DNA of 53,856 nucleotides from Candidatus Avispirillum sp. (GTDB taxonomy: Bacteria; Bacillota; Clostridia; Oscillospirales; CAG-272): positions 1 through 53,856 of the forward strand of contig JAZTXZ010000085.1 in NCBI GenBank assembly GCA_045636685.1. The letters are read 5' to 3'. This document shows, piece by piece, positions 26,301 to 46,072 of the stretch. The number at the start of each line of letters is the position of its first letter. The stretch's first letter is position 1. Both the position numbers and the translations under genes were made by a program. Below the pieces are notes generated by a model. The model did not search any database. It saw nothing but the letters and a program-made list of their open reading frames with translations, and was not told the DNA's origin.

Positions 26301-27262
26301 GTATGATCAAGAACGGGAAGTATTTCTGTCGATATCACTTCAAGACAGTTGGCACAGTATACGGTAATAGATCCCTCTGAGGTACAGGTAGGCTCAATTC
26401 TGATCTGATCCCCCTCTATGTGCTTTCCTGTGGGAAAAAGCTCTGTCCTAAAAATAAGCTCCTCACATACGAGGCAGTAGACGCGCTCCTCTCCACCTTT
26501 AACGCAAGTGGGTAGATCGGTCTCACTTCTTCCTTCTGTATGTATGCCTGTTGCATCAAGAACCGTTTCGAAAAAAATCTCACCGCAGTGAACACATACA
26601 GTTCTTTCGTATCCCGTATCACGACAGGTGGGCTCAAGACGGACATCCGTAATCTCCGGATGATCGCACGCAACAGTAACGGTAGCACTCTCTGTATCGG
26701 GAGCATACTTTGTGAAGCTTATCTTATCCGAAGCATCCACCTCTGCTCTGATAACATCATCCTTACAGGTATATACGCTGACCTCAAAGCGATCTGCTCT
26801 TTCCAGCTCTTCTGTAAAGCTAAAGGTGAAGGTAGCAACATCTCCGTCTTCTGTCATAAGACGGTCTATTGCAGGCATTTCAAAATAAACGGTTACAGAA
26901 CGATAGCCTTCAGTAGCAATGCCCTGTGATGAGATAAGCTCTTCAAAATCATCGGGCTGGCGGCTGTCAGAAAGAGGAAGATCAAAAATACCCTTCATAA
27001 GACTACCCTTACCAAAAAGGTCTCCGTTTTCGATTGCCTCAAGGCTCATACCTTCGGGATATACGATATAGCATCGCATAGCCCAGATACCGGGATTGCT
27101 CGATATATTGAGCTTGATGTCGATATCCCCGGTGGAAGGCAAGATCGTTTCCTTTTCCGGAACGAGGGAAAGTGTAAAACTATCATCTACAGCGGAAAAA
27201 ACCGGCATCGCACTGCCAATGGTAAGAACAAGCACTAGAATAATACAAACAAGCTTTTTCAT
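23351..27262 (-). CDS. secreted modular protein: 3 cohesin-like domains, 2 arrays of Cys/His repeats, C-terminal dockerin
   Basis: signal peptide; three NPGIWA.R..IVYP domains; 16 H...PTC...G.....CxxC-type repeats; GDINADGKVNSMD / ADLNGDGKLNSID dockerin duplication. Confidence 0.8.
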   Translation of the reverse strand: MKKLVCIILVLVLTIGSAMPVFSAVDDSFTLSLVPEKETILPSTGDIDIKLNISSNPGIWAMRCYIVYPEGMSLEAIENGDLFGKGSLMKGIFDLPLSDSRQPDDFEELISSQGIATEGYRSVTVYFEMPAIDRLMTEDGDVATFTFSFTEELERADRFEVSVYTCKDDVIRAEVDASDKISFTKYAPDTESATVTVACDHPEITDVRLEPTCRDTGYERTVCVHCGEIFFETVLDATGIHTEGRSETDLPTCVKGGEERVYCLVCEELIFRTELFPTGKHIEGDQIRIEPTCTSEGSITVYCANCLEVISTEILPVLDHTPSGAASCTEESFCTVCGVVLEEPFGHDESDIIKVEPTCAVGGTYITYCLRCGKVLSREAIPPLRHTPGREEIIEPTCTNEGVCTVYCSVCEKVASETVIPPLGHTYGREEIKEPNCTNEGILTVYCLVCSEIAASKVILPLGHIYEPEECWNVIEPDCINEGYTEKTCIVCRETLVSDIIEPEGHDTDGNTEIREPSCDAAGKKTFYCSKCNEISKIEWTYLEDHSYVDGICSVCGSLERYFGVNDFAVCLDPVRGEKIDAGEDFAVDLSIRNNPGIWAARVFIVYPDALTLVSCKNGNLFNRSGFVIGETDLPLTDSSQVKEFQELIIKEGIPKEGFRSVTLYFECSSVSDNITADGILATLYFKPTETAQLGSSYPVSVYSAEGDIIDAHIADNGMPVFTKHTPLFFNTRAVSYCSHGEVYVEEKAPTCANAGYKNILCSYCDTILESEAYPPTGLHIPGDEIKNEPDCVNAGYGSVSCTVCNTLLLEKIYPATNIHTGGAAETIEPTCTSDGRIIVRCKVCSALLSETVIPLSGHKSEKSATCTEDEICMWCSYVLAPATGHSEGEAIMIFPTCTDEGQGNYYCQGCATLLRSEVIEALGHSYEKEGSITVIHPTCTVGGYTEKVCDRCSESVTVNITPPAGHDARGREDIIEATCTSTGYANIYCSACGEFSGTILLPIKGHSYVDGVCTVCDRAVGSGNYDEFTIDIYTDAEVSIEAPFKAELRVENNPGIWALRCYIVYPDAFSLKGVENGTVFPKGSLMKGVFDLSVSDDSQVDSFKELIKKKGIPKDGYCAVALYFESDSISNNISGNGVLADLTFEFTSEAVFGENYDIWVYTGEDDVINAYVNENGMPTFVKYTPDTVGSTVKAGCSHNERDTLLIEGEDGKTYIRVVCTLCRAVIMEVVPPESADGAYIPGDINADGKVNSMDSSYMKRFLQGALSVGTYERIVADLNGDGKLNSIDSNILVRLLAGDYVM

Positions 27263-30937: not shown

Positions 30938-32176
30938 CTATTGCTTACTACTTTTCCTGCGATGCATGAACAGATAAAGAGGTATTGCTGCAAGAGGGAA
31001 AAGCATTCCCACAAGCAGACCCGCCTTCATTCCCAGCTGTTCCGTAGTGAGCCCTATGGAAGACGCAATACTTACCACATCATCAGACTCCATAACAAAA
31101 TCCGTTATTACACCAACAAGCTGAGGGCCGACGGAAGCACCCAGATCTCCTCCTGCCGCCATCATAGCAAATATAAATACTCCGCCCGCAGGAAATCTAT
31201 CGGTTGCAACCACCAGGTTTCCCGGCCAGAGCATTGAAACGCAAAAGCCGCAAAGCCCGCAGGCAACAAGGCCCACTGCCGCAATATTGAAGACGGATGC
31301 AGTAAGATAGCATAAAGTTGCTCCCACAGCACCGAAAACGAGAACTCTGCCCATATTCTTTCCGATTTTTGAATACAAAGTTCTGCCAAGTCCAAGCATC
31401 GCCGCAAAGAACGTGACTCCAAGAATATCTCCCCAGACCTTCTCAATTCCAAGGGCGGCTTCAAGATAGCCTGAGCTCCACTGAGCCATTGTACACTCAG
31501 CGGCGCCTCCGAGAAATATGGCAAAAACGCAGGCCCACAGTCTTTTGTCTTTAAGATATGCTAAAGCCCCCGAAGTCTTTTCTTCTGTGCGAAGTGTTGG
31601 TATTTCGCTTGATGCAAAAAGAAAAGCTGAAACAAGCGGTATCAGCGCAAAGAGTGCTGCAAGTATCTGCCACCTTTCTTTACCAAACAAAAGCAGGAAC
31701 ACAGTTGCAACAGGGATAACACCTACAACTCCCCATGCGTATATCGAGTGGAGCTTGCTCATCTCTCGGTCCGGATCCGGTGACGGAAGGGCCGCGATCA
31801 CAGGGCTTATCAGTACCTCCCCAAGACCTGCCGCCGCTGAGAATATAACCGTTCCGATCACAAGTCCTGCATATACAGCCCTCGGAAACAGTATGGGACT
31901 CACCGCATAAAAGGCAAGCCCCACAACTGTCAACACCGGCATCAGCTTTACTGTTTTCGTTATATTGAATTTATGAGAAAAAAAGGAAAATATAAGATCA
32001 ACTATAAGCTGAGTTACGAAATTGACAAGGACTAACAGTCCCAGCTTAGAATATGATATCCCGTAAAGCTCTCTGAAGGTCAAAAACAAAAGAGGCGGAA
32101 GATTTCCAACTATAGACATTGAAATATTGGAAAAATAGCAGGCAAGCTTCAGCATTCTCATCTTATTTCTTGTCAT
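30938..32176 (-). CDS. MFS transporter
   Basis: ~12 hydrophobic helices with MFS-like spacing; ATGA coupling to the upstream phosphodiesterase gene. Confidence 0.85.
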   Translation of the reverse strand: MTRNKMRMLKLACYFSNISMSIVGNLPPLLFLTFRELYGISYSKLGLLVLVNFVTQLIVDLIFSFFSHKFNITKTVKLMPVLTVVGLAFYAVSPILFPRAVYAGLVIGTVIFSAAAGLGEVLISPVIAALPSPDPDREMSKLHSIYAWGVVGVIPVATVFLLLFGKERWQILAALFALIPLVSAFLFASSEIPTLRTEEKTSGALAYLKDKRLWACVFAIFLGGAAECTMAQWSSGYLEAALGIEKVWGDILGVTFFAAMLGLGRTLYSKIGKNMGRVLVFGAVGATLCYLTASVFNIAAVGLVACGLCGFCVSMLWPGNLVVATDRFPAGGVFIFAMMAAGGDLGASVGPQLVGVITDFVMESDDVVSIASSIGLTTEQLGMKAGLLVGMLFPLAAIPLYLFMHRRKSSKQ

Positions 32177-32946
32177 ACAAGAGACTTTCCTTCCCAATCG
32201 CGTACAATGGGAACTCCCATTACGGTTGCAACGGTGGGAGCAATATCAAGAAGACCGATATCTGATATCTCTTTACCCTTTTCAAAGCTATCACCCACAA
32301 ACATCATGGGAATAATCATATCCTCGGGAATATCTGCTCCGTGTCCTCTTGCGTGTCCGCCATGGTCTGCAGTAATAATAACAGTGTATCTGTCGCCTGC
32401 CGCTTCGATTACCCTTTTCACATTATCAATAGCGACACTGATATATTCAAGATACGTATCTGTCATCCATCCGACATCGTGACCGCCCTTGCTGTCTGTC
32501 TCAACCATATAGAGAAACACAAAGTCCGGATCTTTCTCATTTATATAGGAAAGCGCTCTGTCTGTAAGGACTGTATCGCTTGAAGGCTCAGAGTATGACT
32601 CTATATATTCTGCTCTGTCAAGGCTTCCCGGGCGTGATAAATCTCTCAGTTCCTCCCAACCGTAAAACATTCCGCAAACAGCTCCCGCGCCTTTCAAAGC
32701 TTCAAAAAGACCTGTTACAGGTCTCACGGGAGGAGTGTATGTATTTGAAAGTATTCCGTGTCTCTCGGGGGGGACGGAAAGGAACAATGACATATGGCAC
32801 GGAAGCGTTACTGAGGGATAGCAGGCGCTTGCGTTCATAGAATATGTTGACATTTTCAAAAGTTCTTCAACATATGTGTTACCGCAAGAGAGAAGGCCAT
32901 CCGGTCTCATTCCGTCTATTGATATCAAAATAACTTTATTTTTCAT
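32173..32946 (-). CDS. alkaline phosphatase superfamily / type I phosphodiesterase-nucleotide pyrophosphatase
   Basis: ISIDGMRPD, PSVTLPCH (Thr nucleophile), D..GGH, ITADHGG; no signal peptide. Confidence 0.85.
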   Translation of the reverse strand: MKNKVILISIDGMRPDGLLSCGNTYVEELLKMSTYSMNASACYPSVTLPCHMSLFLSVPPERHGILSNTYTPPVRPVTGLFEALKGAGAVCGMFYGWEELRDLSRPGSLDRAEYIESYSEPSSDTVLTDRALSYINEKDPDFVFLYMVETDSKGGHDVGWMTDTYLEYISVAIDNVKRVIEAAGDRYTVIITADHGGHARGHGADIPEDMIIPMMFVGDSFEKGKEISDIGLLDIAPTVATVMGVPIVRDWEGKSLV

Positions 32947-33223: not shown

Positions 33224-33256
33224 AAAAGGCTGTCGCAAATAATGCGACAGCCTTTT
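33224..33256. terminator. terminator closing the sigma-CARF-channel-protease operon
   Basis: AAAAGGCTGTCGCA-N5-TGCGACAGCCTTTT directly after the solo RyR stop codon. Confidence 0.8.
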
Positions 33257-33538
33257 TTATTTCTTCTCGATCTTATAACCAAGTGCTACAATAAGCTTCA
33301 ATGTCTCCATTGCTGTATTGCGGTCATATTCTTTTTCAGAATCCGAAAGCTCTCCGTAAGGAACGAGGCACGGTGTTGTCTTTTTTATATCGTCTCGAAC
33401 CTCTCCGTAAGTCCAGCCCTCCTTTATTCTTCCTGCTGCCCAGTTTTCATGAACATTCTCCGCTATCTTTTCTGTCAGCAAAAGAAGCTCCTCGGGAAGC
33501 TTTACTCCTGCAGTATCCACAGGCTCAGGTCTATACAT
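33257..33538 (-). CDS. solo RyR (ryanodine receptor repeat) domain protein
   Basis: YRPEPVDT...LPEEL..L.EKIAENVHENWA..RIKEGWTYG..RDD.KKT.PCLVPY.EL..EKEYDR; start at 33538 with AAAGGAA RBS. Confidence 0.9.
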   Translation of the reverse strand: MYRPEPVDTAGVKLPEELLLLTEKIAENVHENWAAGRIKEGWTYGEVRDDIKKTTPCLVPYGELSDSEKEYDRNTAMETLKLIVALGYKIEKK

Positions 33539-33596
33539 ATTATCATTCCTTTCTTTATTTGATCTCACAGCTACAGTATATGATGCAATATCTAAA

Positions 33597-35804
33597 TTAA
33601 TCCTTATACTTTTCAAGAAATTCAAGCTTATCCCACGACTTTATATCACAGTGACGCTTTGCTCGGTCGCATCTTGTATCTCCGTATTTATAGCCGATGG
33701 TACGCATATATGCATTCCAGCGCATATGCTCCGTCTCTCTTCTTATATTGCAATTTTCACAGTCGCAGACATGACTTTTTTTAATTGCCAGGCAAGGATA
33801 CTTTGCTTCCATGCGCTCCTTATGTACTGCTCTGGCAATTGAGGAAAATCTGAAATACTCATATTCCATATACTTTTCGATCTCTTTGACTATTCTCTCA
33901 AGCACCTGATCTTTATCAAATTTATCAAAATCAACATACTCGTCCTGGGGCTTACGCTTTTTAAGAGATTCTAACTGATCCTTATTACAATTTCTGTACA
34001 TTTCTTTAAGAATATACCAATCTGCATCTCCCCAGTAGGGAACCTTTCCGTCGTAGTTCTCAAGGACCAATGTTCTGAAACTCTTATCATCCATATAACA
34101 ATGTCTCAGCTGACGCTGCTTTGCTACCCATTCCACATGCTGAGCAAAGGCGCTCTTTTCGATCTCCAGCTCGTCCTTTATAACTTTATATGAATACTGG
34201 GCCGAAATATTGCCTATAAATCTCACGTTATAGGGCTGATTACGATAATTTTTAAGATTAGATCCGGCATTACCGACAGCACCAAGGTTCTTAGCTTTTT
34301 TCTCGTCAAACACCACCGCGCATATCATGGGAGCATCATCAATAGTGCTTCCCTTTGCATCATCAGCGCTGACATTATGGATATTATCAAATATCCTTCT
34401 CAGATTCATCGCAACCTCGATGTTTTTATCGTCATCACCGAGAGTTACAAAGGCAAGCTGGGTTTCGGCAAGTCTTTTACCGCTTTCACCTTCCCTGAAT
34501 GCTTTTTCAAACTCTTCGGAGTAGCAGTCTATTCCCGTATAAAACCTTATACTGTATTTCGAATCTCCGTCGATAGTCCTGTCGTTGTTCTCTATGATAT
34601 CGGGGCACTGCATATAAAGCTCGCCCTTTGCACGATCTCCCTCAGAATTATCGAATACGTTTACCTGAAGCTCATAGCCTTTTTCCTGGAAAAACCAGAG
34701 AGACGTTTTCAAAAACTCCTTTCCGTATTCGCCGAGGCCGATTATCATAATGGAAATCTTTTTCGTCTGCTTTGCCATTCTTTCGATCGGTCCGAGTATA
34801 TACGTCTGATCACGGAGAGTTTTCTGAACAAGAAGATTATAGCTGTTGAACCGCTTTACCCTGAAGCCCTTATCAAGATCAACTATTTCATGAAGCCCCT
34901 TTTCCAGATCAAAAATCATTCCGGGAGAATCTGTTATTTTCTTTTTGGTTCTCTTATTAAATCTAAAGGGATTCTTGCCGAACGAGTCCATAACGTAGGC
35001 TGCGCCGGGACTGCCTGCAAAAACATACAGACTAATGTTTCTCTTTTTTGTATATATTTCTTTGATGGCAATTGCCTGAGAAAGATTTTCCGATTCGTCG
35101 TCTCCCATAAGGAATATCTCCATCCTTCTGAATTTTCCCTTCAGATTCAGATGCGCTACATCCTTTTTAAGACAAACCGCTCTAATATTATAAGCACGAA
35201 GTATGAGCTCATAATTTTCTTCCTCGTTCTTTTTAAAAACATCGGTGAATACTATCAGCGGCTTGATTTTTCTTTCTTTTTTGTATTCATCGACTACGCT
35301 TTCAGCCAGAGCCATGGAGCGCTCATTAAGACAGGACATTATACATATCTTTCTGAAGATGCAAGAGGAAAAGCGAATCTCATCTCTCAGATTTCTGAAC
35401 AGCGCAAGTACGTTTGTAAAGGTCAGGATAGGGGCTGCCACATATATCGCACATACAGAAAAGAGATATGTAACATATAGCCATTCTGCCTTAATACAAG
35501 CAGAGCAAGCTTCCTTTACAAGTTCATAATTCGTATCGAGAATAAATATTCTCAATGCATTATGAAATGCAAGAAGGCAAGGGCGCACATAGTAATTATC
35601 ATCAATATATTCGTTATGATACAAATATACCGGTATCAGCAAACATACAGCAGATATAAAAATACCAACTGTCAATATCTGAACATATGTAAATACCTTA
35701 TGCGCACGTTTTTTGTTCTTGCTTCTGATTATCGCCCACACTGAAAAAAATATTGCGAAAAAAACAGCAATACAAAAGCACAGGTAAAATACCTTTTGTT
35801 CCAT
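33597..35804 (-). CDS. channel-like membrane protein: TM module, tandem RCK/TrkA-N-like domains, C-terminal RyR domain
   Basis: 3 TM helices with an intervening LAFHNALRIF helix, IIGLGEYG Rossmann motif, VTLGDDDKNI, EHMRWNAYMRTIGY.YG..R...AKRH.DI..W. Confidence 0.75.
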   Translation of the reverse strand: MEQKVFYLCFCIAVFFAIFFSVWAIIRSKNKKRAHKVFTYVQILTVGIFISAVCLLIPVYLYHNEYIDDNYYVRPCLLAFHNALRIFILDTNYELVKEACSACIKAEWLYVTYLFSVCAIYVAAPILTFTNVLALFRNLRDEIRFSSCIFRKICIMSCLNERSMALAESVVDEYKKERKIKPLIVFTDVFKKNEEENYELILRAYNIRAVCLKKDVAHLNLKGKFRRMEIFLMGDDESENLSQAIAIKEIYTKKRNISLYVFAGSPGAAYVMDSFGKNPFRFNKRTKKKITDSPGMIFDLEKGLHEIVDLDKGFRVKRFNSYNLLVQKTLRDQTYILGPIERMAKQTKKISIMIIGLGEYGKEFLKTSLWFFQEKGYELQVNVFDNSEGDRAKGELYMQCPDIIENNDRTIDGDSKYSIRFYTGIDCYSEEFEKAFREGESGKRLAETQLAFVTLGDDDKNIEVAMNLRRIFDNIHNVSADDAKGSTIDDAPMICAVVFDEKKAKNLGAVGNAGSNLKNYRNQPYNVRFIGNISAQYSYKVIKDELEIEKSAFAQHVEWVAKQRQLRHCYMDDKSFRTLVLENYDGKVPYWGDADWYILKEMYRNCNKDQLESLKKRKPQDEYVDFDKFDKDQVLERIVKEIEKYMEYEYFRFSSIARAVHKERMEAKYPCLAIKKSHVCDCENCNIRRETEHMRWNAYMRTIGYKYGDTRCDRAKRHCDIKSWDKLEFLEKYKD

Positions 35805-35889
35805 AACACTCTCCAATCAGCCGACAACACATCGGCAATAACATCAGGCTCATATCTGTATGATAAAAGCACCTTCATAGGGTATCTTC

Positions 35890-38800
35890 TTACAGAACAA
35901 CCTCACTTATCTCTTTTCTGGTAAGATGGGTTTTCTTTATGAGCAGTTCGGCAAGCCTGTCCAGCTTTTCTTCATTGCTTCTGATTTCGGAAACCGCAAG
36001 AGAAAGTTGCTCTGACAGTATTTTATTAACTGCCGCTCTTACTTCTTTATCTTCCCTGGCAGTATCACCAAGAACACAAAGTCCGATACTTGGGTCCATT
36101 CCGAAATAGCATATCATTTTGTATGCAAGATCCGTAGCTTCCAGAAGGTCTCCCGATGCACCTGTCGATAAACCTTCGCTATCTCCGTAACAGACTATTT
36201 CAGCGGCTCTTCCTCCAAGGGCAGTTCTTATGCGGGAAAGCAGCTCATTTTTTGTATAAAGTCCCTTTCCCTCTCGATCACCATACTGCATATATCCCCC
36301 ATTATCCCCTCTTGCAACGATAGTTATGTATGAGGGTATCTCACCTGAAAGGGTGCATATGAGTCCGTGTCCCGCTTCGTGTCTTGCTATTCTGAGCAGC
36401 TGATCATCGTCTGTCTTTTTTTCGTCTCCGCCGAAAAACGTCTCGTATGCTTCATCGAATATAGACTCTGTTACCTTATCTTCATTATACCTCACAGATA
36501 TCCTTGCCGCAAGCTCAAATATTGAGCTGAGCTCTGCAAGGCTTCTTCCGGTAGAACGAACGGCAATATTTTCTACATACTCATCAGACAGCTCGTAGCA
36601 AACTCTCATGCCAAGCTTCTTTTTTATAAATTTTATCCTATCGTCCTTGGAGGGCAGATCTATCTTGATCCTTCTGTCAAACCTTCGCAAGAACGCACGG
36701 TCGAGGCATCTGGGGCTATCGGGATCAGCACTGAAGTTTGTTGCCGCAAGGACAAAAACAGGACGCGACGCATCTTTTTTAAAGCCATCCATTTCAGTAA
36801 GTAAAGCCGTCAGAATGCTGTCGTTACTGTTTTGAGACTCACCTGATCCGCGCTCCTTCGCAATTGCATCAATTTCATCTATAAAAAGCACTGAAGGCGC
36901 ATATTTTCTTGCAGTTCTGAAAAGTTCATGAACAGCTTCGGCGCCTTCGCCGGAGTACTTTTTAAGAAACTGATTACCCTCCGCCGCAATAAATGTTGCA
37001 TCAGATTCACCTGCCAGCGCCTTTGCAAGCATTGTTTTACCGGTTCCGGGAGGTCCGTAAAGGAGAACTCCTCTTGGATTTTCAAGTCCTTTTTTTCTGT
37101 ATTTCTTAGGATCCTTCAGGAATGATTCGAAGTGACGAAGCTCGTCCTTCGCATCCTCACCTCCTATAATATCATCAAATACAGTATCAGGCTTTGATAC
37201 ACCGCTGAGAACATTTCCGATATCCTCTGCATCCACGGCAGTCTCAAGCTTGAAATCAAAAAGGCTGATCTCTGCACTCATTTTATCATCGTTCAGCTTT
37301 TGGGATGTCTCATAGCTTACAAGCTTATTTGCTCTTGCAAGTCCCGTCATACTGCGTACAAAATGAATACCATCGCAAATTTTGCACACTTCATTGCAAA
37401 AACCGTCTTTTGATGAAGCAAGTGAGATCATATCAAATATGCCCTGCTTTGAAAAAGACCTGATCTCTTCCTCGGAATAAATATGTTCTTCTGTCTGCAA
37501 AAGGCATATCTGAACACGAGGATACTCCTCTTTAATATGCGAAAATATAACTCTTGCATCTGACTGTGCATCCTCTATATTAAGAAGAACATCAGTACTT
37601 CTTATGCCAAAGCTCATATCCAAAAGGACTGCCTTGATATCCCTCTCTTCAAAAATCGCGTCAGCCTCTTCAATGCTTTTTGCACCGAAAAAAGTATAAA
37701 GACTACCTTCAGCATTTTGTTTGCAAGCATCCAGAGTATTATTATCGGAAACAACAAGTATTTCCGATGTTTCTTTATTTCTGAAAAGTGAAACTATATT
37801 ATCATCATCGGGAAGCTCTGTTCCGATCTTTACCATCCTGATATCTTTTACTTTACTGCCTACACGCTCTGATGAAGCTAGGCTGTAAAGCTCATACAGC
37901 TCATCATCAATGAATGATCCAGCTCTTGCACTTACAGTTCTTGCATCGGTGCCAGCACCCTCCTCAAACAAAAGTGCTGTATAGACATCCTCTTCTATTT
38001 CCACCTTCACTCCGCTTGCCGCCTCAAAGCCCTCAGCTCTTTTTTGCATCTCCATTTTTGCGATCTTTCGCAGATCATTTGCGCTGATATGGTTAAACAT
38101 GACAACATTTTCCGACGCAAATCTTGAGCAAAGAGCACTTGGAAAGTAGGGAATATTTGTAACGGGATTGATATCCTTCTGAAGCGTCCTGAGTATGACC
38201 TTTCTTGATACCTGTGCAAGGTTTTCTGACTCTGCGCCTTCATAAAGCTGTTTTCCCGCATTTGTTGTAAATATGATCACCGTATTAAGAAAGGACACCT
38301 TATGATCGGTATAATTATCACGGAGATACCCTCCGTCAAGGATCTGCAAAAACAGATTAATAACTACCGGATGAGCCTTTTCCACTTCATCAAACAAAAG
38401 AACACTGCGGGGATTATCCTCAACAAAGCCTGTTACATTACCGCGACCGCCTCCCTTATACACTTTATCTGAGCCGCAGAATTCAAGATTGGATTCCTTA
38501 TCTGCATATTCGCTCATATCAAAGCGTTTAAACCTTATTTCATTTGCATAATCAAGAGAAGAAAGCACGTTCATAGCTTGGGCAGTCATTTCTGCAAGAT
38601 AAGTCTTTCCAACTCCGGGAGGGCCTGCAAAAAGGAAAACTGCACCGGGCTTTTTTCTCTTTTTTTCAGTAAGCTTTAAAACCTGTGAACGGTAATATCC
38701 CTCCGCCACGGTTCTTACAGCATTATCCTGACCTACAACTAATGAGGAAAGCATGTTCTGAAGGCTTTTTGTATCCTGCACAATGCTCTCAAGCGCGTTT

Positions 38801-39363
38801 CTTACTTCATCTGCAGTTTTCTTCTCCTCGAGTTCATCCTCTGTGTCGCATTCAAATTCATCTTCAAAGCAGTAAAATTCAGATTCTTCATCAAAGAAAT
38901 CATCGATCGGCAATTCCTCACTTAAATCCTCTTCAACAACAGTATCAGCAGGTACCTCAATATCCAAAACATTTTTCAGCAACTCAGAAGGGTCCTCTGC
39001 TATTGCTTTAGCAAGATGAACGGCACTGATCTCCTCACTGCCCTCAGCTTCAGCCGTTTTTTTAGCCGCTTCAAGCAATTTTTCCATATATTCCGTATCT
39101 GCAATTTTATTTGAGTCGGCTTTCTCATATAAACAAGCTAACAGCTTATTCCTATAGCTGTTATGACTCTTTTTATTATCGAGAAGAAGACTCAACGCAC
39201 AAATAAGCTCCTTATCGTTTGCACGGAGCTCTTCGAGGGAAAGAGTATTGAAAAGATCTATCATCTTTACGATAACCTTTTCGACCATGGGAATGGGCAA
39301 ACCGTTTATGTCTTCCGGATTTCTAAATCCCAGCAGCTCCGAAAGCAACTTGGAATACTTCAT
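35890..39363 (-). CDS. soluble fusion protease: Clp-N repeat, ClpB-D2-type AAA+, receiver-like domain, FtsH-type AAA+, M41 zinc peptidase
   Basis: EISAVHLAKAI; FLFAGPPGVGKT, RFDMSEY, LLFDEVEKAHP; ILVVSD...EEA...VLLD; GVLLYGPPGTGKT, FIDEIDAI, LLTEMDGF, RFDR; HEAGH, LGGRAAE, GASGD; no TM helix. Confidence 0.85.
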   Translation of the reverse strand: MKYSKLLSELLGFRNPEDINGLPIPMVEKVIVKMIDLFNTLSLEELRANDKELICALSLLLDNKKSHNSYRNKLLACLYEKADSNKIADTEYMEKLLEAAKKTAEAEGSEEISAVHLAKAIAEDPSELLKNVLDIEVPADTVVEEDLSEELPIDDFFDEESEFYCFEDEFECDTEDELEEKKTADEVRNALESIVQDTKSLQNMLSSLVVGQDNAVRTVAEGYYRSQVLKLTEKKRKKPGAVFLFAGPPGVGKTYLAEMTAQAMNVLSSLDYANEIRFKRFDMSEYADKESNLEFCGSDKVYKGGGRGNVTGFVEDNPRSVLLFDEVEKAHPVVINLFLQILDGGYLRDNYTDHKVSFLNTVIIFTTNAGKQLYEGAESENLAQVSRKVILRTLQKDINPVTNIPYFPSALCSRFASENVVMFNHISANDLRKIAKMEMQKRAEGFEAASGVKVEIEEDVYTALLFEEGAGTDARTVSARAGSFIDDELYELYSLASSERVGSKVKDIRMVKIGTELPDDDNIVSLFRNKETSEILVVSDNNTLDACKQNAEGSLYTFFGAKSIEEADAIFEERDIKAVLLDMSFGIRSTDVLLNIEDAQSDARVIFSHIKEEYPRVQICLLQTEEHIYSEEEIRSFSKQGIFDMISLASSKDGFCNEVCKICDGIHFVRSMTGLARANKLVSYETSQKLNDDKMSAEISLFDFKLETAVDAEDIGNVLSGVSKPDTVFDDIIGGEDAKDELRHFESFLKDPKKYRKKGLENPRGVLLYGPPGTGKTMLAKALAGESDATFIAAEGNQFLKKYSGEGAEAVHELFRTARKYAPSVLFIDEIDAIAKERGSGESQNSNDSILTALLTEMDGFKKDASRPVFVLAATNFSADPDSPRCLDRAFLRRFDRRIKIDLPSKDDRIKFIKKKLGMRVCYELSDEYVENIAVRSTGRSLAELSSIFELAARISVRYNEDKVTESIFDEAYETFFGGDEKKTDDDQLLRIARHEAGHGLICTLSGEIPSYITIVARGDNGGYMQYGDREGKGLYTKNELLSRIRTALGGRAAEIVCYGDSEGLSTGASGDLLEATDLAYKMICYFGMDPSIGLCVLGDTAREDKEVRAAVNKILSEQLSLAVSEIRSNEEKLDRLAELLIKKTHLTRKEISEVVL

Positions 39364-39380
39364 GTTATTCTGGCTCCTTA

Positions 39381-41168
39381 TTATCTTGCTCCGACCTTTG
39401 AATCCTTACGTTTTTCATCCTCATCGAGGCCCGAAAACTCAACAAGGTCATGATGCATTTTGGCAAGGTCATTCCTTGATTCTTTGTTATGAGAACCGCT
39501 ATATATATATCCCTCTGATCTCATATAAGCATTCCATCTGCGGTGCTCCAGCTTCTCTATAATATCACGCTCACTGTCCGTCAGTTCTTCTTCCTTTTTG
39601 TATGCGCCGGGAATATTGCACTCTACCCTGGCCTTCATATGTACCGCAGATGCAACGGAAGAGCTGTAGTTATACTCATATCCCCAGAATTCCTCCTCCT
39701 TGCCCCACTTAAGATGGCGGGCAAGAGCCTCTGCCTCTACTTCGGAATCGATAATGACGTTCTCCGTTCTAACGTCGCAGATAAAATCAATATCATATGC
39801 CTGGCCTCTGTAATTTACGATCCCTTCAAGAGCTTCCCTTGCATCACGGCTATACACAACCGTTTGAATAACGGGTTTTGCTCCTATTCTCTCAAACAGC
39901 ATTCTCAGATTTACTGCAGTTTTAATATTATCCTTATCGTTGCCCAAGGTTACCATAACGTAGGTTGTATCCTTGAGCTTCATTATTTCATCGGCAAACT
40001 GCTTTGTATCAACAGAAATACCGGAATTTATGTTGATAGTATACTCAGCCTCATCCGGAATACTTACTCCGTTATATCTTTTAGACATAAGCTCAGGACA
40101 CAGAGCAGAAAATTTTTCCTTTGCCAAGGGATCTTTATCAAAGGCATCTATCTTTATTTTGTAACCGTCCATCTGGCAATACCATGAAAGAGATTTCACC
40201 ATCTCAGTTCCGTATCTGCCCATACCAACGACCACCGCGCCGATATGCTTCATATTATCCTCAGCCTCTTTGGCACTGCTGAAGATCTTTTGGCCGTCAT
40301 TATACAAAAGATGGGTTATGAGGCTTCTGACCTCATTTATGCGTCTTACCTTCAGGGCGCTTTCTTTATTGCCGTTAAGCAAAAGCTCGCTCTCTATCCT
40401 TGTCGTAAAAACATAAAGTCTTGTATTTTCACGATCCTTGTATATATTTCGCAATTTAAGTGCCTGAGATATATTTTCGGCTTCATCGCTTCCCATTACA
40501 AACAGATACATGGCAGTATTTTTTATTTTTCTTCTCAGATTAACAGTTAAAATATCGCCTTTGAAGCATACGGCACCAAGTGCTCTTGCACGCTGGATCA
40601 GCTCGTAGGTATCCTCTTCCTCTTTTTCAAAAACATCTGTAAATACAATGAGCACCTTTTTATGGTTTTTCTCAATATCCTCAGCAAGTGAAAGAGTTTT
40701 TTCGTTCAGCTCTGAGAAGATATAAGTATCCCTGAAAGGAAAGCACTTATATTTCAGATATGATGTTATATTCTTGAAAAAGGAAAGCAAAAATCCAAAT
40801 GTCAGAATGGGGGCAAGGAGGAGAAGCAAATATGCCAGTGCCGTATAAGGCTCACAGAGCCACTCAAGCCACTCAGGCATATTAGCAACACCGTCTCCGA
40901 TAATGCTATAATCATCATCAACAGAAAAAGCTCTGATAGCATGATGGAATGCAAGGATTAATGATTTTATAGTATCGAAGCTGTCGCCTCTGTATTTATC
41001 AACATATACAGGTAAATTGAGAAAAACGGAAGAGGCCGCCCATCCTCCAAACAGAACATTTACAGGATTAACTCTGACACGGACCTTCTTGAAAAACAGA
41101 ATAGCAGAAAAAACTATAGCTTCCAAAAAAAGGCATAATGCCAACACAAAACAAAAAAGCCAGATCAT
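39381..41168 (-). CDS. second channel-like TM-RCK-RCK-RyR protein (paralog of 33597-35804)
   Basis: 3 TM helices, LAFHHAIRAF, VVGMGRYG, VTLGNDKDNI, LEHRRWNAYMRSEGY...AKMHHDLV.F..L...EKRKD. Confidence 0.78.
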   Translation of the reverse strand: MIWLFCFVLALCLFLEAIVFSAILFFKKVRVRVNPVNVLFGGWAASSVFLNLPVYVDKYRGDSFDTIKSLILAFHHAIRAFSVDDDYSIIGDGVANMPEWLEWLCEPYTALAYLLLLLAPILTFGFLLSFFKNITSYLKYKCFPFRDTYIFSELNEKTLSLAEDIEKNHKKVLIVFTDVFEKEEEDTYELIQRARALGAVCFKGDILTVNLRRKIKNTAMYLFVMGSDEAENISQALKLRNIYKDRENTRLYVFTTRIESELLLNGNKESALKVRRINEVRSLITHLLYNDGQKIFSSAKEAEDNMKHIGAVVVGMGRYGTEMVKSLSWYCQMDGYKIKIDAFDKDPLAKEKFSALCPELMSKRYNGVSIPDEAEYTININSGISVDTKQFADEIMKLKDTTYVMVTLGNDKDNIKTAVNLRMLFERIGAKPVIQTVVYSRDAREALEGIVNYRGQAYDIDFICDVRTENVIIDSEVEAEALARHLKWGKEEEFWGYEYNYSSSVASAVHMKARVECNIPGAYKKEEELTDSERDIIEKLEHRRWNAYMRSEGYIYSGSHNKESRNDLAKMHHDLVEFSGLDEDEKRKDSKVGAR

Positions 41169-41233: not shown

Positions 41234-42487
41234 TTATTTTTTATTCCAAAGATTATCCATCGCACGTCTGAACTCAGAATCATCCATGTGGCAGATATCA
41301 CTTATGACAGTGATTCCCATATCACTGGCCCTCTGCCTGATATGTCCTTCATTTGCGGCTCCGTTCAAGGCGCTTGCAACAAGTATTTTCTTTGCATATT
41401 CTGAACCGAACTTTTCTGCAACAGAATTAAGTTTAAACAGTTCTTCAACTTCAACATGTCCGTTTTTGCACGAAACAAATATAGGAATGATACCCTTCAT
41501 AAGAATGGCATCGACTTCATTTTTCGTATCTCCTCCAAGGAGGTCTGCCTCAGCATTTCCGTCCCAGTCAAGAGTAACGCCGGTCATTACATCGTTATAT
41601 ACAGGTTTATCCTCTTCATCGCACAGCTCTCTTGTAACGGCATATACCTTCATTTCAAGAGCCTGTCCCGACTTGATGAGACACTTCTTCACCTGCTCGT
41701 TTTTATATGTTACAGTGAGTTTTTCACTGTCTACGGAAAATGACTTAATAAGTCCCGCATTCAGAAGCTTATAGAATATCCATTTGTAGAACACGTAAAA
41801 GCCCTTTTGACCTTTGAGGTTTTCCGTTATCTTCTCGATTGATGCAGTAGTGGTAAGAGGATCGTCGTCATGTTCTCTGTAAAGCTCCGCTACATCAAGC
41901 ACTCTTGTCTGATAATTCCACTGCTTGCAGTTTGAGCTGCAGATATCCCACATAGCATGGATATCTCTGATAAAATACTTATCCATATTCCATATATGTG
42001 TTGTGCCTTCTACATCATCATCATATATTATATCGCCGCCATACATACGTATATTTTCGCGAACAGACATATAAGGAAGCTCATCACCCATAATGGTTTT
42101 TCCGTCTCCATCGCAGTCGATAAGCTTATTGTACTGGATATTGAAACGATGCACCTGTATTCCTCTGTCCTTATATCTTTCGCTGATGATGCCGACAGCG
42201 GCAATATAAAGCTCGTCACCGCCGGTGAGATCAAAGGCGCAGTCCTCATAAGTATCAAGTATCTCCTCAAGAACTTTGACAATGCCCTTGAGATCGTTTT
42301 TATTGACAGCTTTATGCAAAAATTCCGTATCGTATCCTCTGTCTCTCAGCACGCTCTCATATCTTTCTGCATGCTTTTTCAAAAGCTTGGACTTATCTCC
42401 TATCAGCACAACCCTCTCGGGTGGGTTGATAAGTGTCGCACAAACATTTTCTATGGTTACTTTATCAAAAAATTCAATATACGTCAT
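41234..42487 (-). CDS. CARF plus PD-(D/E)xK nuclease protein, DUF1887 / Card1-Can2-like
   Basis: N-terminal Rossmann-like fold with FDLTGG motif; C-terminal GQALE...NEVD.....IFVSCKNG...ELFKL. Confidence 0.78.
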   Translation of the reverse strand: MTYIEFFDKVTIENVCATLINPPERVVLIGDKSKLLKKHAERYESVLRDRGYDTEFLHKAVNKNDLKGIVKVLEEILDTYEDCAFDLTGGDELYIAAVGIISERYKDRGIQVHRFNIQYNKLIDCDGDGKTIMGDELPYMSVRENIRMYGGDIIYDDDVEGTTHIWNMDKYFIRDIHAMWDICSSNCKQWNYQTRVLDVAELYREHDDDPLTTTASIEKITENLKGQKGFYVFYKWIFYKLLNAGLIKSFSVDSEKLTVTYKNEQVKKCLIKSGQALEMKVYAVTRELCDEEDKPVYNDVMTGVTLDWDGNAEADLLGGDTKNEVDAILMKGIIPIFVSCKNGHVEVEELFKLNSVAEKFGSEYAKKILVASALNGAANEGHIRQRASDMGITVISDICHMDDSEFRRAMDNLWNKK

Positions 42488-42750
42488 CTTTTCAATCCCA
42501 TTTGATTAATTCTGTTTTCAACTTCTTCTGCAATTTCATCAGACATGATCTGCATAAAACGTTTTACATTCATTTTTTCAACAGAGAGATCTATCTCATC
42601 ATAGATATCCTGATATGCATTGACTTTATCAGTACACTTACGGCACACTCTCATATGTGTATTTACATCAGAAATAAGCTTCAGGCTTTGTTCATTAAGC
42701 TCTTCCACAGATACAAACTCAATGATCTCTTCAATGCTTAGATGCTTCAT
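42484..42750 (-). CDS. small zinc-binding anti-sigma (ZAS / zf-HC2) protein
   Basis: N-terminal HL..E.I..F plus HMRVCRKC (HxxxCxxC); overlaps the upstream sigma-like gene; no TM. Confidence 0.7.
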   Translation of the reverse strand: MKHLSIEEIIEFVSVEELNEQSLKLISDVNTHMRVCRKCTDKVNAYQDIYDEIDLSVEKMNVKRFMQIMSDEIAEEVENRINQMGLKR

Positions 42751-43579
42751 TATCAATTACCTGCCTGATCTTTTTGTTTATTTTGTTTAGCCAATCGCTT
42801 ATTGATGAAGTTGCACCCTTTTGCATAAAGCAATCCCGAAACAAAGTCTCCCCCAAAAGCATGCCGTCATCCTGCGTTTTTTTCAGACGCGCATCAATTT
42901 TTGTAAAGTTACCCTTTGTAAATCCGAGCCATGAATACTTTGTTTCATGTACAAGAAGGCGAAAGGCTTTGTTTCTCATGCTTACAAGAGGTCTGTCACC
43001 AAATGTATCTGCAAGCTTTTTTGTTGCATCTTTTCTCGTTGCACCTGTTTCCATCATGAGGTATGAATGGAGAATCCATGTAAGAGACTTGTACGGAGCC
43101 GTGCTCATGTCTGCCACTGTGAAAAAGCACTTTTTCAAAAGGTTTACCACATTTTCAGAGGGCTTCTCTATTCCGCGCAACAGTCTGAGATAATACCATA
43201 CATCACCCTGCAAAAACTTATTCTTATCCGTCAGTTCCCCTGTGAGCTTTCTTTTGTAATCGATAAGAGTTCTTACTCCAAGCGTTCTCAGCCAAGGTCT
43301 GAGACCGTCAACATCATCATTAACAGGACCGAAAGGTCCGTCCTTTTTCACATACCTGTTAAGGATCTTTTTAGCCACTTTGGAACGGATCTTCTGCATG
43401 ATTTCGTCAAAATGGTCGTTTGTCCTGAGCAGTCTGTCGTCATAGCATTTGAGCTTAATGTATTTATATAAAACTGCTTCCGCTATTCTCAGCGCAGTAT
43501 CTGTAACCGCCCCGTCGCTTTCCAGAAGCTCATTGACCATCATATAGTATTCTTCATCAGTATACTCTCTTTGTGTCAT
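42731..43579 (-). CDS. divergent ECF-type sigma factor-like protein
   Basis: sigma2-like DEIMQ...LRPWLRTLGVRTLIDYKRK; C-terminal sigma4-like SSISDWLNKINKKIR; coupled to a ZAS gene. Confidence 0.6.
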   Translation of the reverse strand: MTQREYTDEEYYMMVNELLESDGAVTDTALRIAEAVLYKYIKLKCYDDRLLRTNDHFDEIMQKIRSKVAKKILNRYVKKDGPFGPVNDDVDGLRPWLRTLGVRTLIDYKRKLTGELTDKNKFLQGDVWYYLRLLRGIEKPSENVVNLLKKCFFTVADMSTAPYKSLTWILHSYLMMETGATRKDATKKLADTFGDRPLVSMRNKAFRLLVHETKYSWLGFTKGNFTKIDARLKKTQDDGMLLGETLFRDCFMQKGATSSISDWLNKINKKIRQVIDNEASKH

Positions 43580-43751: not shown

Positions 43752-44945
43752 TTAATCGGAATTTATTCTGATGCACTCACCGAAGGTAGCTGTTACCTCG
43801 CTATCCACAATTATCCATATCACAGGTACATTCAATGATACGCTCTCATCCGGAAATTCCGCATATCCATCTGTTATAATTATAATTCCCGCAGGCAGTT
43901 CATCTTCAAAGTACCCGTGCATACTGTCAAAAATCACAGAAAAACTTGTTCCTCCTCCGCCCACAGGCTCAATGGAAGAAAGCTTTTTTATACTGTCAAA
44001 TTCAACAGGCTCGGATACTTGAGTGTCGAAAAAGGAAATATAACCCGAAAGATTGCCTATCTGATCTATAGCAGATCCGATCTCGCTCATAGCCTCCGAT
44101 ATAGCTTTATTTGAAATTGATCCCGATGTATCAATAAGAAACCACAGTTTTTCTATCTTACCGCCATCCTTGTTTTCAGAAAAAGAAGGAAGGATCACAT
44201 CCCCGCCGAATCTGTTATCCGGAGGAATAAAATCATAATCGTACCTATCGTGCTGAATAAAATCGTGAAGCACCTGCCTCCAGTCGATCTTATTGCGCTT
44301 GGTTATCCCCTCTATAAATCTTTTGAGTCCGCAGGGGATGCCCGAGCCGTTTTTACCGGATGATTTTGACGCATTTGAAATATAAGTATTCCATGTTTCC
44401 TCAAGTATGCTTCCGTAAATATCGATGCTGCCCCAAACGCTGTGATCATCAAGAGAGTAATTCCCTTCGGCAGCATCCGGCAAACCCATAGTATTCCCCA
44501 CGCTTTTCTGATTGAGAAGCATAAGATATACCTGCTCAGCGCTATACTCTCTGCCCTCCTTGCCATCGGGAGCAAGGTGCATTACCTTCCACCCGTCTAT
44601 GAGCATCTCCTTTTCTCCCATGGCATCAAGGATCACTGAATTAACTACTATATCACATGCGATATTATAAAGCAGATGCATTTTCCCTTCCGCGCGTGTA
44701 CAATGCTTCAGCACACAGTGCATCAGCTCATGCAGCATTACGAAACTGAGCTCCCTGTCACTCAGCCGCGCAGCAAAATCAGGATCGAATACGATACGCC
44801 TCATATCCGTAAATGCAGTTTCACAATCGGCAAATCCGAAAGGCAGATGCATCAAAAGCCTACCGAAAAAGGGATACCTGTCCAGCATATCTGCCCTTAT
44901 TGTTATCAGACGATTTGATATTTTCCTCATGATATCGCGATTCAT
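43752..44945 (-). CDS. DUF2201-type metallopeptidase plus vWA domain protein
   Basis: PFFGRLL, TAFTD, HELMH, NIACD..VN, LIDTSGSI (MIDAS), GGGGTSF, IITDG. Confidence 0.88.
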   Translation of the reverse strand: MNRDIMRKISNRLITIRADMLDRYPFFGRLLMHLPFGFADCETAFTDMRRIVFDPDFAARLSDRELSFVMLHELMHCVLKHCTRAEGKMHLLYNIACDIVVNSVILDAMGEKEMLIDGWKVMHLAPDGKEGREYSAEQVYLMLLNQKSVGNTMGLPDAAEGNYSLDDHSVWGSIDIYGSILEETWNTYISNASKSSGKNGSGIPCGLKRFIEGITKRNKIDWRQVLHDFIQHDRYDYDFIPPDNRFGGDVILPSFSENKDGGKIEKLWFLIDTSGSISNKAISEAMSEIGSAIDQIGNLSGYISFFDTQVSEPVEFDSIKKLSSIEPVGGGGTSFSVIFDSMHGYFEDELPAGIIIITDGYAEFPDESVSLNVPVIWIIVDSEVTATFGECIRINSD

Positions 44946-46072
44946 ATTCCACCGCCTGCACTATATATATCGGAAATGCTGTCCTTATTTCTTGTTACCC
45001 ATGTCTGGAAGGTATAGCATTTCATCAGCTTTTCCGAAAGGCCCTCAATAAGGAGAACATCCCTGACAAAGACTACTGCAAAATCCTTCGGAAATCTGAA
45101 CACATAATCACATACATTTGTTATATTCTGAGGAGTTATACTGTTCTTCTTATCCCTCATAGCGCTGACAAGTCCCTGGGTCAACGCATACATTACATCA
45201 TGGGTTTTAGGGTACTCTCTGCAACGTCCGTTCATAATATCATTTACAGAGGGAATAGAAAGACAACCCTTACAAAATGCACAGAACTCTATAGCAGTAT
45301 CGTTCCCTACACAGGCTGCTATCAGCATCTGTTTTTCCGAGGTTATTATTGATTGATTTCTCAGTATCCTGCTGACATACTGCCATGATCTTGGAGTTGG
45401 ATATGCAAGATCAGAACTTTCAGGCTCAACGCAGAGACGGCTCTCGTCCATTCCGATAAAAGCGATGACCATTTCCGAAATTCCGTTTTTCACCGCCCAT
45501 TTCTTCCATGACGCAAAATCAGCCTTTACGTTAAAATGCATAAGTCGGTTACAAAGTGCTTTGGGCATCTTATAGCTGACGCTCATATCCGTTACTCTGT
45601 TACCTGCCGCAATAACAAAGCAATTATCGGGCAGGCTGTGCTCTCCGATTTTTCTGTCAAGGCATAACTGATATGCTGCCGCCTGTACCTGCTGGGGCGC
45701 AGCTGACAGCTCATCCAGAAACAGTAAGTTGATCACTCCGCGGGAAGGGTCCATTTCAAAGATACGGGGCTTCAGCCAATTTGCAAGCTTATGCTCCGTA
45801 TCTGCTACAGGTACCCCTCGCAGATCAATAGGCGAAAACAAAAGAAGCCTTACATCCGTGATATTCACCTTTACATCATATTCCTTTTCAAGCTTTTCGG
45901 CAAGCTGATAGATTGCCTGGGATTTTCCGATTCCCGGTGCGCCCCATAAAAACGGTGTGGTCAGCTCCTTCATGGGAATACGGTCCTCGATTGCCTCTCC
46001 TATCACGATTTTCAAAAGACTTATTACCTTCTCCACGGTCGTACCGGGAATATTTAACTCCATATCACTCAT
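44942..46072 (-). CDS. MoxR-clade AAA+ ATPase
   Basis: LWGAPGIGKS, DVRL, DLRGVP, LFLDEL, AAGNR, ALCNR, PTPRSW; ATGA-coupled on both sides. Confidence 0.9.
   Translation of the reverse strand: MSDMELNIPGTTVEKVISLLKIVIGEAIEDRIPMKELTTPFLWGAPGIGKSQAIYQLAEKLEKEYDVKVNITDVRLLLFSPIDLRGVPVADTEHKLANWLKPRIFEMDPSRGVINLLFLDELSAAPQQVQAAAYQLCLDRKIGEHSLPDNCFVIAAGNRVTDMSVSYKMPKALCNRLMHFNVKADFASWKKWAVKNGISEMVIAFIGMDESRLCVEPESSDLAYPTPRSWQYVSRILRNQSIITSEKQMLIAACVGNDTAIEFCAFCKGCLSIPSVNDIMNGRCREYPKTHDVMYALTQGLVSAMRDKKNSITPQNITNVCDYVFRFPKDFAVVFVRDVLLIEGLSEKLMKCYTFQTWVTRNKDSISDIYSAGGGI

Follow-up and report, generated by a model that had tools for sequence, protein, structure and literature searches.

The window examined here, a stretch of 53,856 nucleotides from Candidatus Avispirillum sp. 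(GenBank assembly GCA_045636685.1, contig JAZTXZ010000085.1), carries on its minus strand two paralogous genes, TMA and TMB, together with a gene for a solo RyR-domain protein. TMA and TMB appear to be channel-like proteins in which a pore-type membrane domain is followed by tandem RCK domains and a truncated C-terminal RyR-type module, and genes of the TMA family are linked to genes for TIR-domain proteins. We give even chances to the view that TMA and TMB are nucleotide-gated channel effectors of an immune type, which would be opened by signals derived from nicotinamide adenine dinucleotide (NAD).

All three of the minus-strand open reading frames (ORFs) that an earlier note on this DNA had described are present, and every one of the motif blocks that it listed as shared by the two larger proteins is found in the alignment of TMA with TMB. 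Its description of both as channel-like RCK-RCK-RyR proteins is largely right, its idea of a nucleotide-sensing membrane effector is supported, and the pairing in trans that it proposed between the channel tails and the solo RyR protein is unproven. Its remark that the function of bacterial RyR domains is largely unknown is out of date: two preprints of 2026 report that phage RyR domains bind or cleave 2'/3'-cyclic ADP-ribose (2'/3'cADPR). These preprints, taken together with the linkage to TIR genes, permit a more specific reading than the earlier one.

Channel fold and candidate pore

BLASTP aligns TMA with TMB from one end to the other, with 30% identity over 562 columns (E 4e-69), and gives a second match for the C-terminal block (41% identity, E 5e-14). 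An alignment of 121 family members, referred to as A1, was used for the AlphaFold2 model of TMA, for column counts, and for a family profile, which matches TMB at E 1.2e-113. Searches with TMA, TMB and the solo RyR protein found nothing in the PADLOC or NCBIfam libraries, and a single-sequence search of the Protein Data Bank (PDB) with TMA gave chance-level matches only; it is the predicted structure that places TMA among the RCK proteins. The model is of high quality, with a mean predicted local distance difference test score (pLDDT) of 95.2 and a predicted template modelling score of 0.90. In the Foldseek comparison with MthK, BK and CASTOR that had been suggested earlier, the TrkA ring, GsuK, human Slo1 and the CASTOR ring rank first, at E values of 5e-6 to 1e-4. 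VIA-align gives the same picture: the CASTOR ring is matched at Z 18.5 (327 aligned residues, root-mean-square deviation (rmsd) 4.9, model residues 146-538), DMI1 at Z 17.8, TrkA at Z 17.0 (254 residues, rmsd 3.0), KtrA at Z 16.7, and Slo1 at Z 14.4. In particular, GsuK is matched at Z 16.6 by model residues 32-484 over residues 19-489 of its chain, and full-length MthK at Z 10.2 by model residues 34-282 over 22-234; ordinary dehydrogenases reach a Z of about 10. By these comparisons, the assignment of tandem RCK domains, which the earlier note had made from the letters of the sequence, holds.

The two RCK-like domains of TMA differ in their motifs. Single RCK or KTN chains match residues 306-481 of TMA at Z 11-13 in VIA-align, and Pfam TrkA_N scores 23.6 bits on the protein against a cut-off of 23.8. 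Judged by its conserved residues, this second domain keeps a classical dinucleotide-binding motif: in A1, G315 is found in all 121 sequences, G317 in 109, G320 in 117, and D344 in 111. The first RCK-like domain has no such motif.

The membrane domain that precedes the RCK domains is plausibly, and indeed likely, a channel pore, although this is not proven; the assignment is drawn from the collinearity of the model with known channels, from the predicted topology, and from a conserved acidic loop. Basic residues of TMA lie in the loop at residues 28-34 and after residue 130, as the positive-inside rule would have it. Both the loop and the segment after the last helix are thus expected to lie inside the cell, and the region between helices 2 and 5 would therefore face outwards, in an M1/P-loop/M2 topology with one extra outer helix. 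The order of transmembrane (TM) helix, pore-helix-like segment and TM helix that had been noticed earlier fits the model, and the GYG filter is absent, as had also been said. At the place of the T-V-G-Y-G signature of K+ channels, TMA has the loop A-F-S-V-D-D-D-Y, which argues that its family does not consist of canonical K+ channels. Within A1, the consensus of this loop is F-x-[VIL]-D-[GAS]-[DE]-[FY]: F81 is kept in 116 of 121 sequences, position 84 is acidic or amidated in 97 (Asp in 79, Asn in 18), and position 86 is acidic in 101 (Asp in 71, Glu in 30). We take such an acidic loop to resemble filters of the non-selective or Ca2+ type, such as that of NaK. The membrane domain was also folded alone from a 64-sequence alignment (A2), with a pLDDT of 93.5. 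Its atlas look-alikes include proteins with Ion_trans_2, at scores of 0.75-0.80 that offer a lead only.

RyR-type modules of the channel tails and the solo protein

The C-terminal 55-80 residues of the channels form a truncated RyR module. The earlier note had described a C-terminal RyR repeat in both proteins; the repeat is real by profile evidence, and what did not stand is its completeness, as the modules are truncated and single-sequence Pfam scores stay below the RyR cut-off of 27.4 bits (12.9 for the whole of TMA, 17.8 for a TMA fragment, and 15.3 for a TMB fragment). A comparison by hhalign of a profile of 40 solo RyR proteins with the TMA profile aligns residues 25-76 of the former with residues 537-593 of TMA (97.65%, E 2.6e-12). 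When the A1 profile is run against the PDB, all 44 sequences at E ≤1 are RyR-domain entries, among them 6UHI at 1.7e-16, the RyR protein of Bacteroides thetaiotaomicron at 1.3e-7, and phage RyDEP (35TM) at 0.012. The same profile matches the solo RyR protein of the window at E 1.2e-5, and one family member, P0266, passes the Pfam cut-off by itself at 28.3 bits. The Pfam alignments of the channel tails end at profile positions 69-73 of 91; TMB stops exactly at a conserved Lys-Asp pair, and TMA six residues beyond it.

The importance of these tails lies in what phage RyR domains have been shown to do. RyDEP (PDB 35TM) holds its ligand in a pocket within one protomer, with contacts from H75, W78, H100, and D117, and dimerizes by helices 1 and 4; other phage homologs bind molecules of the 2'/3'cADPR type at nanomolar affinity. 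RyR Tad is a sponge for signals of the 3'cADPR type, with contacts from H129/W132, K147/H154, and K170/D171 (10.64898/2026.06.04.730250). In the register given by the hhalign and PDB profile alignments, the contact positions of these two proteins map to E541, H542, W545, R565, K570, H572, K588, and D589 of TMA, each of which is conserved in 103-121 of the 121 sequences of A1. In particular, H542 is kept in 117, W545 in 120, R565 in 105, H572 in all 121, K588 in 103, and D589 in 113. The channel tail thus keeps the residues that phage RyR proteins use to hold 2'/3'-cyclic ADP-ribose, and these residues delineate a predicted pocket.

The segment that joins the second RCK domain to the RyR module, TMA residues 478-516 (window positions 39621-39737), is itself strongly conserved, with E478, H485, W488, F494, W495, Y499, Y501, S503, S504, and H510 standing out. 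At residues 478-501, an H-x-x-W ... F-W-x-Y pattern recalls half of a RyR repeat, an impression that hhalign, with its sole match at 537-593, does not bear out. Among 16 longer members of the family, RyR and TrkA_N are the only domains found, with no TIR, SLOG, or other informative fusion.

The solo RyR protein has a complete repeat. As the earlier note had proposed for the stand-alone protein of 93 amino acids at the end of the operon, Pfam RyR covers it from end to end (125.5 bits, 1e-36, positions 1-91), and its stop codon is followed by a hairpin. The genome has no other PF02026 match, and the gene for this one lies directly after TMB. In the PDB, it matches 6uhi at 7e-75 (about 70% identity) and 3nrt, the RyR protein of Bacteroides thetaiotaomicron, at 4e-37. 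An alignment of 40 of its relatives (A3) shows that it keeps H30, W33, R48, and D72 and has Thr55 at the position of the phosphate-binding His of phage and animal RyR domains. Thr55 is near-invariant among the 40 relatives, which hints at a different ligand or a different mode of binding in this subfamily. The clostridial subfamily of 93-residue solo RyR proteins is large, with at least 7,999 clusters at E ≤0.001 and about 80% identity.

Distribution, gene neighbourhoods and linkage to TIR genes

The TMA family is large. In a database clustered at 90% identity, it gave 1,247 matches among the candidates scored, and of the 120 nearest relatives listed there, none has a precomputed Pfam domain; in a 50%-identity library, the count is 1,903 clusters at E ≤0.001 (717 at E ≤1e-30). 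Its members come mostly from metagenome-assembled genomes of Oscillospiraceae, Lachnospiraceae, Christensenellaceae, and other Clostridia. Within the genus, the A1 profile finds the family in 5 of 24 other genomes, and in 3 of 21 near-complete genomes, this genome's group included; 16 genomes from other families of the order yielded a single weak match, to the RyR part only. The TMA-type gene is therefore a patchy accessory gene.

To describe its surroundings, 80 loci from species-representative genomes were compared by tblastn with the proteins of the window, by clustering of ORFs, and by Pfam; presence counts are those of tblastn. A single channel gene is found in 71 of the 80 loci, and a second gene, of the TMB type, lies downstream of TMA in seven, with two further loci cut by contig ends. 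Solo RyR genes are present in 12 loci and follow the TMB-type gene in 5 of the 7 that could be assessed (L012, L021, L040, L043, and L047), compared with 7 of the 73 others; the fetched flanks of the remaining 68 loci have none. These counts bear on the proposal that TMA and TMB form a hetero-tetramer and that the solo RyR protein docks in trans on the channel tails, mimicking the tandem repeat of the animal receptor and gating or inhibiting the channel. The recurrence of the order TMA, TMB, solo RyR and the preference of the solo gene for TMB-type neighbours speak for such docking, as does the dimeric state of phage solo RyR proteins. Moreover, two-fold pairing among its own RyR modules would not be open to a C4 channel, so that an external partner would make geometric sense. 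However, a heteromeric channel is not required where 71 of 80 loci have one channel gene, and most loci have no solo protein at hand. In addition, the dimer interface of RyDEP and RyR Tad is built from helix 1 and the last helix, and most of the latter is missing from the channel tails. A RyR partner is not needed for ligand binding, since the pocket of RyDEP lies within one protomer. As a whole, this proposal is quite unlikely.

The linkage of the family to TIR genes, the strongest signal of these neighbourhoods, was assessed with a hidden Markov model (HMM) built from 12 TIR domains of neighbouring genes. By this model, TIR ORFs occur in 21 of the 80 loci. A TIR ORF lies no more than 3 kb away in 16 of the 47 loci that have 3 kb or more of flank on each side. 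The 3-kb flanks, 393,155 bp in all, contain 19 TIR ORFs, including one TIR-STING gene entered manually on the basis of Pfam, and all 19 lie on the strand of TMA. This corresponds to 48 per Mb, compared with 6 per Mb (13 per 2.15 Mb) in the genome of the window, an enrichment of about 8-fold with a Poisson probability of 1.2e-11, in which the relatedness of the loci is uncorrected. The 19 ORFs fall into 11 clusters of TIR proteins, and Pfam confirms the domain in all 16 proteins checked. The domains to which these TIRs are fused include BspA-type LRR, LRR_4, NB-ARC/TPR, TPR, MORN, PASTA, HD, a second TIR, and STING. Further neighbours of TMA-type genes have to do with NAD: a TNT NADase domain, a NUDIX protein beside a TIR-HD fusion, NAD synthase, and TIR-STING. 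The loci concerned are L032, L034, L003, L004, and L070, and NAD synthase was identified by a Pfam scan in L034 and by clustering only in L032. The genome of the window itself has an unusually rich TIR complement, as its 13 TIR_2 matches, in open frames of 200-962 amino acids, are contained in 2.15 Mb.

These neighbourhoods also bear on how far TMA and TMB may be taken for housekeeping proteins, that is, for channels of cation homeostasis that are controlled by NAD(H) or adenine nucleotides in the manner of Ktr, Trk, or GsuK and have no immune role, with TIR neighbours that merely reflect the abundance of TIR-LRR genes. The relatives by fold are physiological channels and regulators of transporters, the second RCK domain has the classical dinucleotide motif, many of the immediate neighbours are metabolic, and TIR genes are common in this genome, all of which would suit such a role. 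Against it stand the patchy occurrence within the genus and the 8-fold rise of TIR density in the flanks, always on the same strand and from 11 TIR families. Moreover, the recurrent neighbours include CARF nuclease, TNT, TIR-STING, and a conjugation coupling protein, and the K+ filter is missing. On balance, we consider a housekeeping role unlikely, albeit with some real chance.

Other recurrent neighbours are a homolog of the AAA+ protease of the window, downstream of TMA in 14 of 80 loci, and a homolog of its CARF nuclease, upstream of TMA in 11 of 80 and often after two YbjN-like genes. Proteins of 1,300-1,900 amino acids whose sole Pfam match is a transglutaminase core stand beside the CARF nuclease or TMA in L005, L019, L048, L059, L060, L065, and L074; they often follow a protein of about 750 amino acids that has no assignment. 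Three recurrent neighbour families gave nothing above the Pfam threshold.

It has also been considered that these genes are counter-defence cargo of a mobile element, in which the solo RyR protein, and perhaps the channel tails, would act as sponges or glycosidases of TIR-made signals of the host. Sequestration or cleavage against Thoeris is the only experimentally known function of a stand-alone RyR protein; the solo protein keeps the positions of the His/Asp dyad (H30 and D72), and a type IV coupling protein or a transposase is found at some related loci. However, in a collection of viral contigs, 21 stretches were candidates for the solo-RyR subfamily and 30 for the TMA family; one of the former and none of the latter were confirmed. 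A sponge needs neither a membrane pore domain nor an RCK ring, the phosphate-binding His is Thr in the solo subfamily, and the orientation shared with TIR genes is that of a sensor-effector operon. Thus, a counter-defence role is very unlikely. On the sole viral contig with the solo-RyR subfamily (L094:265-5916), an ORF of 1883 amino acids directly precedes the solo RyR gene.

A number of results weigh against the reading of TMA and TMB as immune channel effectors. Compared alone with PDB representatives, the membrane domain reaches Z 6-8, the noise range of the tool for helical proteins, and about half of its top 50 matches are pore domains of tetrameric cation channels; the MthK pore is matched within the same noise range (Z 7.0, 81 of 82 residues, rmsd 3.1), and Foldseek finds no match to this domain at E ≤0.001. 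The channel RyR modules lack about the last 15-20 Pfam positions, that is, most of the final helix, and remain below the Pfam cut-off in TMA and TMB themselves. As for the TIR genes, the Poisson value overstates significance, because the loci are related to each other. The contig of the window has no TIR_2 match, all 13 matches of the genome lying on other contigs, and with no TIR gene in the operon or on the contig, the TIR link of this window is by family association only. The 3-kb flanks of 31 of the 47 well-flanked loci contain no TIR gene, and housekeeping or metabolic genes are frequent among the immediate neighbours. Finally, TIR proteins fused to STAND, LRR, or STING are often effectors that deplete NAD and not makers of a signal; the channel may therefore sense the loss of NAD or linear ADP-ribose and not a cyclic signal.

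If TMA and TMB are nonetheless immune channel effectors, they would be subunits of RCK-ring-gated cation channels without K+ selectivity, related to GsuK, MthK, BK, and the CASTOR family. By analogy with these structural relatives, the channel would be a tetramer whose pore lies under a ring of eight RCK domains. A NAD-derived nucleotide, made by a TIR protein or another NADase that is encoded nearby in a third of the well-flanked loci and elsewhere in this genome, would bind the RyR pocket, and the second RCK domain may play a part too, through its occupancy by NAD(H) or an adenine nucleotide. On binding, the channel would open and dissipate ion gradients, and ion flux or depolarization would then lead to a stop of growth or to aborted infection. 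The solo RyR protein may set a threshold or end the signal by binding or hydrolysing this ligand, and the accessory operon would have additional, parallel arms in the CARF nuclease and the AAA+/M41 protease.

A wider proposal is possible, and we make it tentatively, with the balance somewhat against it. The TMA family might be the host-side receptor that phage RyR sponges imitate, a cation channel whose RyR pocket is gated by a TIR-made derivative of NAD, and hence a prokaryotic counterpart, possibly a forerunner in its logic, of the disputed axis of cyclic ADP-ribose (cADPR) and the ryanodine receptor in animals. The window would then hold a multi-effector operon that joins a CARF nuclease and an AAA+/M41 protease to the two channels, and the solo RyR protein would be a quencher, tied mainly to the TMB-type channel, that buffers or hydrolyses the signal. 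If this is true, a large unannotated family of about 1,900 clusters gains a function as a nucleotide-gated channel effector of TIR/NADase immunity in Firmicutes of the gut and rumen. A cellular receptor with the same RyR pocket that phages use against cADPR-type signals would, moreover, explain why phages carry the fold. It would also provide a small, tractable bacterial system in which to ask whether a pocket of the Repeat12 type turns ADP-ribose-derived ligands into gating, a question still open for animal ryanodine receptors.

Operon layout and relation to known systems

The genes form a co-oriented run with short gaps on the minus strand, in the order 282-residue protein, 90-residue protein, CARF nuclease, TMA, AAA+ protease, TMB, and solo RyR protein (Table 1). 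The gene unit of the earlier note is right as to the three ORFs and left out the AAA+/M41 gene, the CARF-nuclease gene, and the hairpin. From its sequence, this hairpin appears to be a strong terminator-like end of the operon. At the other end, a promoter-like site at 43641-43613, just upstream of the 282-residue gene, has the best score on its strand (10/12); such sites are no commoner here than in shuffled sequence.

Table 1. Features of the operon and domains of TMA (window coordinates)
Feature	Position	Strand	Basis
TMA, 595 aa: extra N-terminal TM helix, 2TM/P-loop-like domain, tandem RCK, truncated C-terminal RyR module	39381..41168	-	ORF, AlphaFold2 model, fold matches, large homolog family
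TMA membrane domain, residues 1-141: predicted helices 2-27, 35-58, 65-79 (pore-helix-like), 88-95, 99-141	40746..41168	-	DSSP on models, alignment to GsuK/MthK
Candidate filter loop of TMA, residues 80-87	40908..40931	-	A1 column counts; putative filter role
RCK1-like domain of TMA, about residues 146-300, no glycine-rich motif	40269..40733	-	VIA alignments begin at model 146-150 on CASTOR, TrkA, KtrA rings
RCK2/KTN-like domain of TMA, about residues 305-475, with G315-x-G317-x-x-G320 and D344	39744..40256	-	Pfam TrkA_N, single-RCK chain matches
Truncated RyR-type module of TMA, about residues 517-595, with H542, W545, R565, K570, H572, K588, D589	39384..39620	-	hhalign, A1 profile vs PDB, residue conservation
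TMB, 739 aa from TTG (735 aa from ATG at 35804): TMA paralog with insertions	33597..35816	-	BLASTP vs TMA, weak Pfam RyR on tail
Solo RyR-domain protein, 93 aa from ATG at 33538; longer TTG ORF reaches 33625	33257..33538	-	Pfam RyR 1e-36, PDB matches, alignment A3
AAA+/M41 protease, 1157 aa, soluble, between TMA and TMB	35890..39363	-	Pfam AAA_2, AAA, Peptidase_M41; NCBIfam FtsH_fam
CARF + PD-(D/E)xK nuclease (Card1/Can2-like), 417 aa, 65 nt upstream of TMA	41234..42487	-	PADLOC CARF4--CARF_PDDEXK
90-aa gene, second in same-strand run	42484..42756	-	ORF
282-aa gene, start of same-strand run	42731..43579	-	ORF
Hairpin, 14-bp stem, A and T tracts on both sides, directly 3' of solo RyR stop	33224..33256	.	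terminator-like

The AAA+ protease consists of a Clp_N-like start, an AAA domain of the ClpA/B-D2 type, a middle region of about 250 amino acids, an FtsH-type AAA domain, and an M41 domain with H-E-A-G-H, and it has no membrane anchor. NCBIfam FtsH_fam scores 330 bits, below its equivalog cut-off, and the middle and N-terminal regions give nothing above the Pfam threshold. The CARF nuclease is matched over residues 3-413 by the PADLOC model at 2.5e-29 and reaches 19.1 bits with Pfam Card1_endonuc, for which the cut-off is 26.4. In this assembly, which is 87% complete, no Cas10 (Csm1/Cmr2) lies above the cut-off, and one match of 37 bits spans Csm1 positions 7-103 only; the CARF-PD-(D/E)xK nuclease thus appears orphaned in the genome. 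The 282-residue protein has no Pfam family at E ≤1, and the 90-residue protein has chance-level matches only (E 0.01 or worse, far below the cut-off); by tblastn, this gene pair recurs in 4 of the 80 related loci.

The whole window contains no Rfam family and no CRISPR-like array. Upstream of the operon, at 43752-49365 on the minus strand, lie co-oriented genes for an SNF2-type helicase (1098 amino acids), a MoxR-like AAA_3 ATPase (376), and a DUF2201 metallopeptidase/VWA-like protein (397), a triad that looks like a separate module of a conflict type or of a mobile element. The genes that flank the region, at 32173-32946 and 50250-51518, have no match at E ≤1e-20 in five near-complete genomes of the genus. 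A protein of 1303 amino acids with cohesin and dockerin domains, of the cellulosome scaffoldin type, is encoded at 23351-27262 on the minus strand and fits a fibre-degrading host among the Clostridia of gut or rumen.

Taken as wholes, TMA and TMB would combine known kinds of proteins, namely RCK channels and effectors of the Thoeris type. GsuK (PDB 4GX0/1/2/5), MthK, and BK/Slo1 share with TMA a collinear arrangement in which a pore-type membrane domain is followed by tandem RCK domains, and the structural matches of TMA include NAD- and ADP-bound GsuK entries of the PDB. TMA differs from these channels in its acidic loop (F-x-V-D-G-D-F in place of T-V-G-Y-G), in the extra N-terminal TM helix, and in the C-terminal RyR module, which they lack; there is no significant sequence similarity to them, and in the PDB the family profile matches RyR entries only. 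The best structural match to the cytoplasmic part of TMA is provided by CASTOR, POLLUX, and DMI1, nuclear Ca2+ channels of plants (PDB 6O6J and 7VM8). CASTOR is a tandem-RCK channel with no K+ signature and with an acidic filter residue, D265, in A-D-S-G-N-H-A (PMC6697748). The members of this family differ from TMA in that they are eukaryotic and Ca2+-gated and have no RyR module, and identity in the structural alignment is 10-12%.

On the best reading, which is one by analogy, the closest described system is type X Thoeris. It pairs the TIR protein ThsB with an ion-channel effector, ThsK, and has been validated against phage, and its signal is unknown (10.64898/2025.12.03.692087). The main text of that preprint describes no domains of ThsK and never mentions RyR. 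Moreover, most TIR partners of the TMA family are large proteins fused to sensors and not of the small ThsB type, and the window has no adjacent TIR gene. In the literature searched, no report connects RyR domains with RCK channels or with Thoeris effectors of the host side.

With respect to the RyR module, the phage proteins RyDEP and RyR Tad and the RyR protein of B. thetaiotaomicron (PDB 3NRT and 6UAG) have the same domain as the solo RyR protein and the tail of TMA. The two phage proteins are soluble dimers directed against host immunity, whereas that of TMA is the tail of a channel and is without the last helix, and the solo protein has Thr for the phosphate-binding His. Repeat12 of the animal ryanodine receptor is the same Pfam domain with the same ligand-contact residues, and it too is carried by an ion channel for which products of TIR/NADase enzymes are candidate ligands. 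However, that receptor is a giant six-TM channel with tandem repeats, and its pore and gating are unrelated to those of TMA, in which a 2TM domain and a predicted RCK ring are combined with a single truncated repeat.

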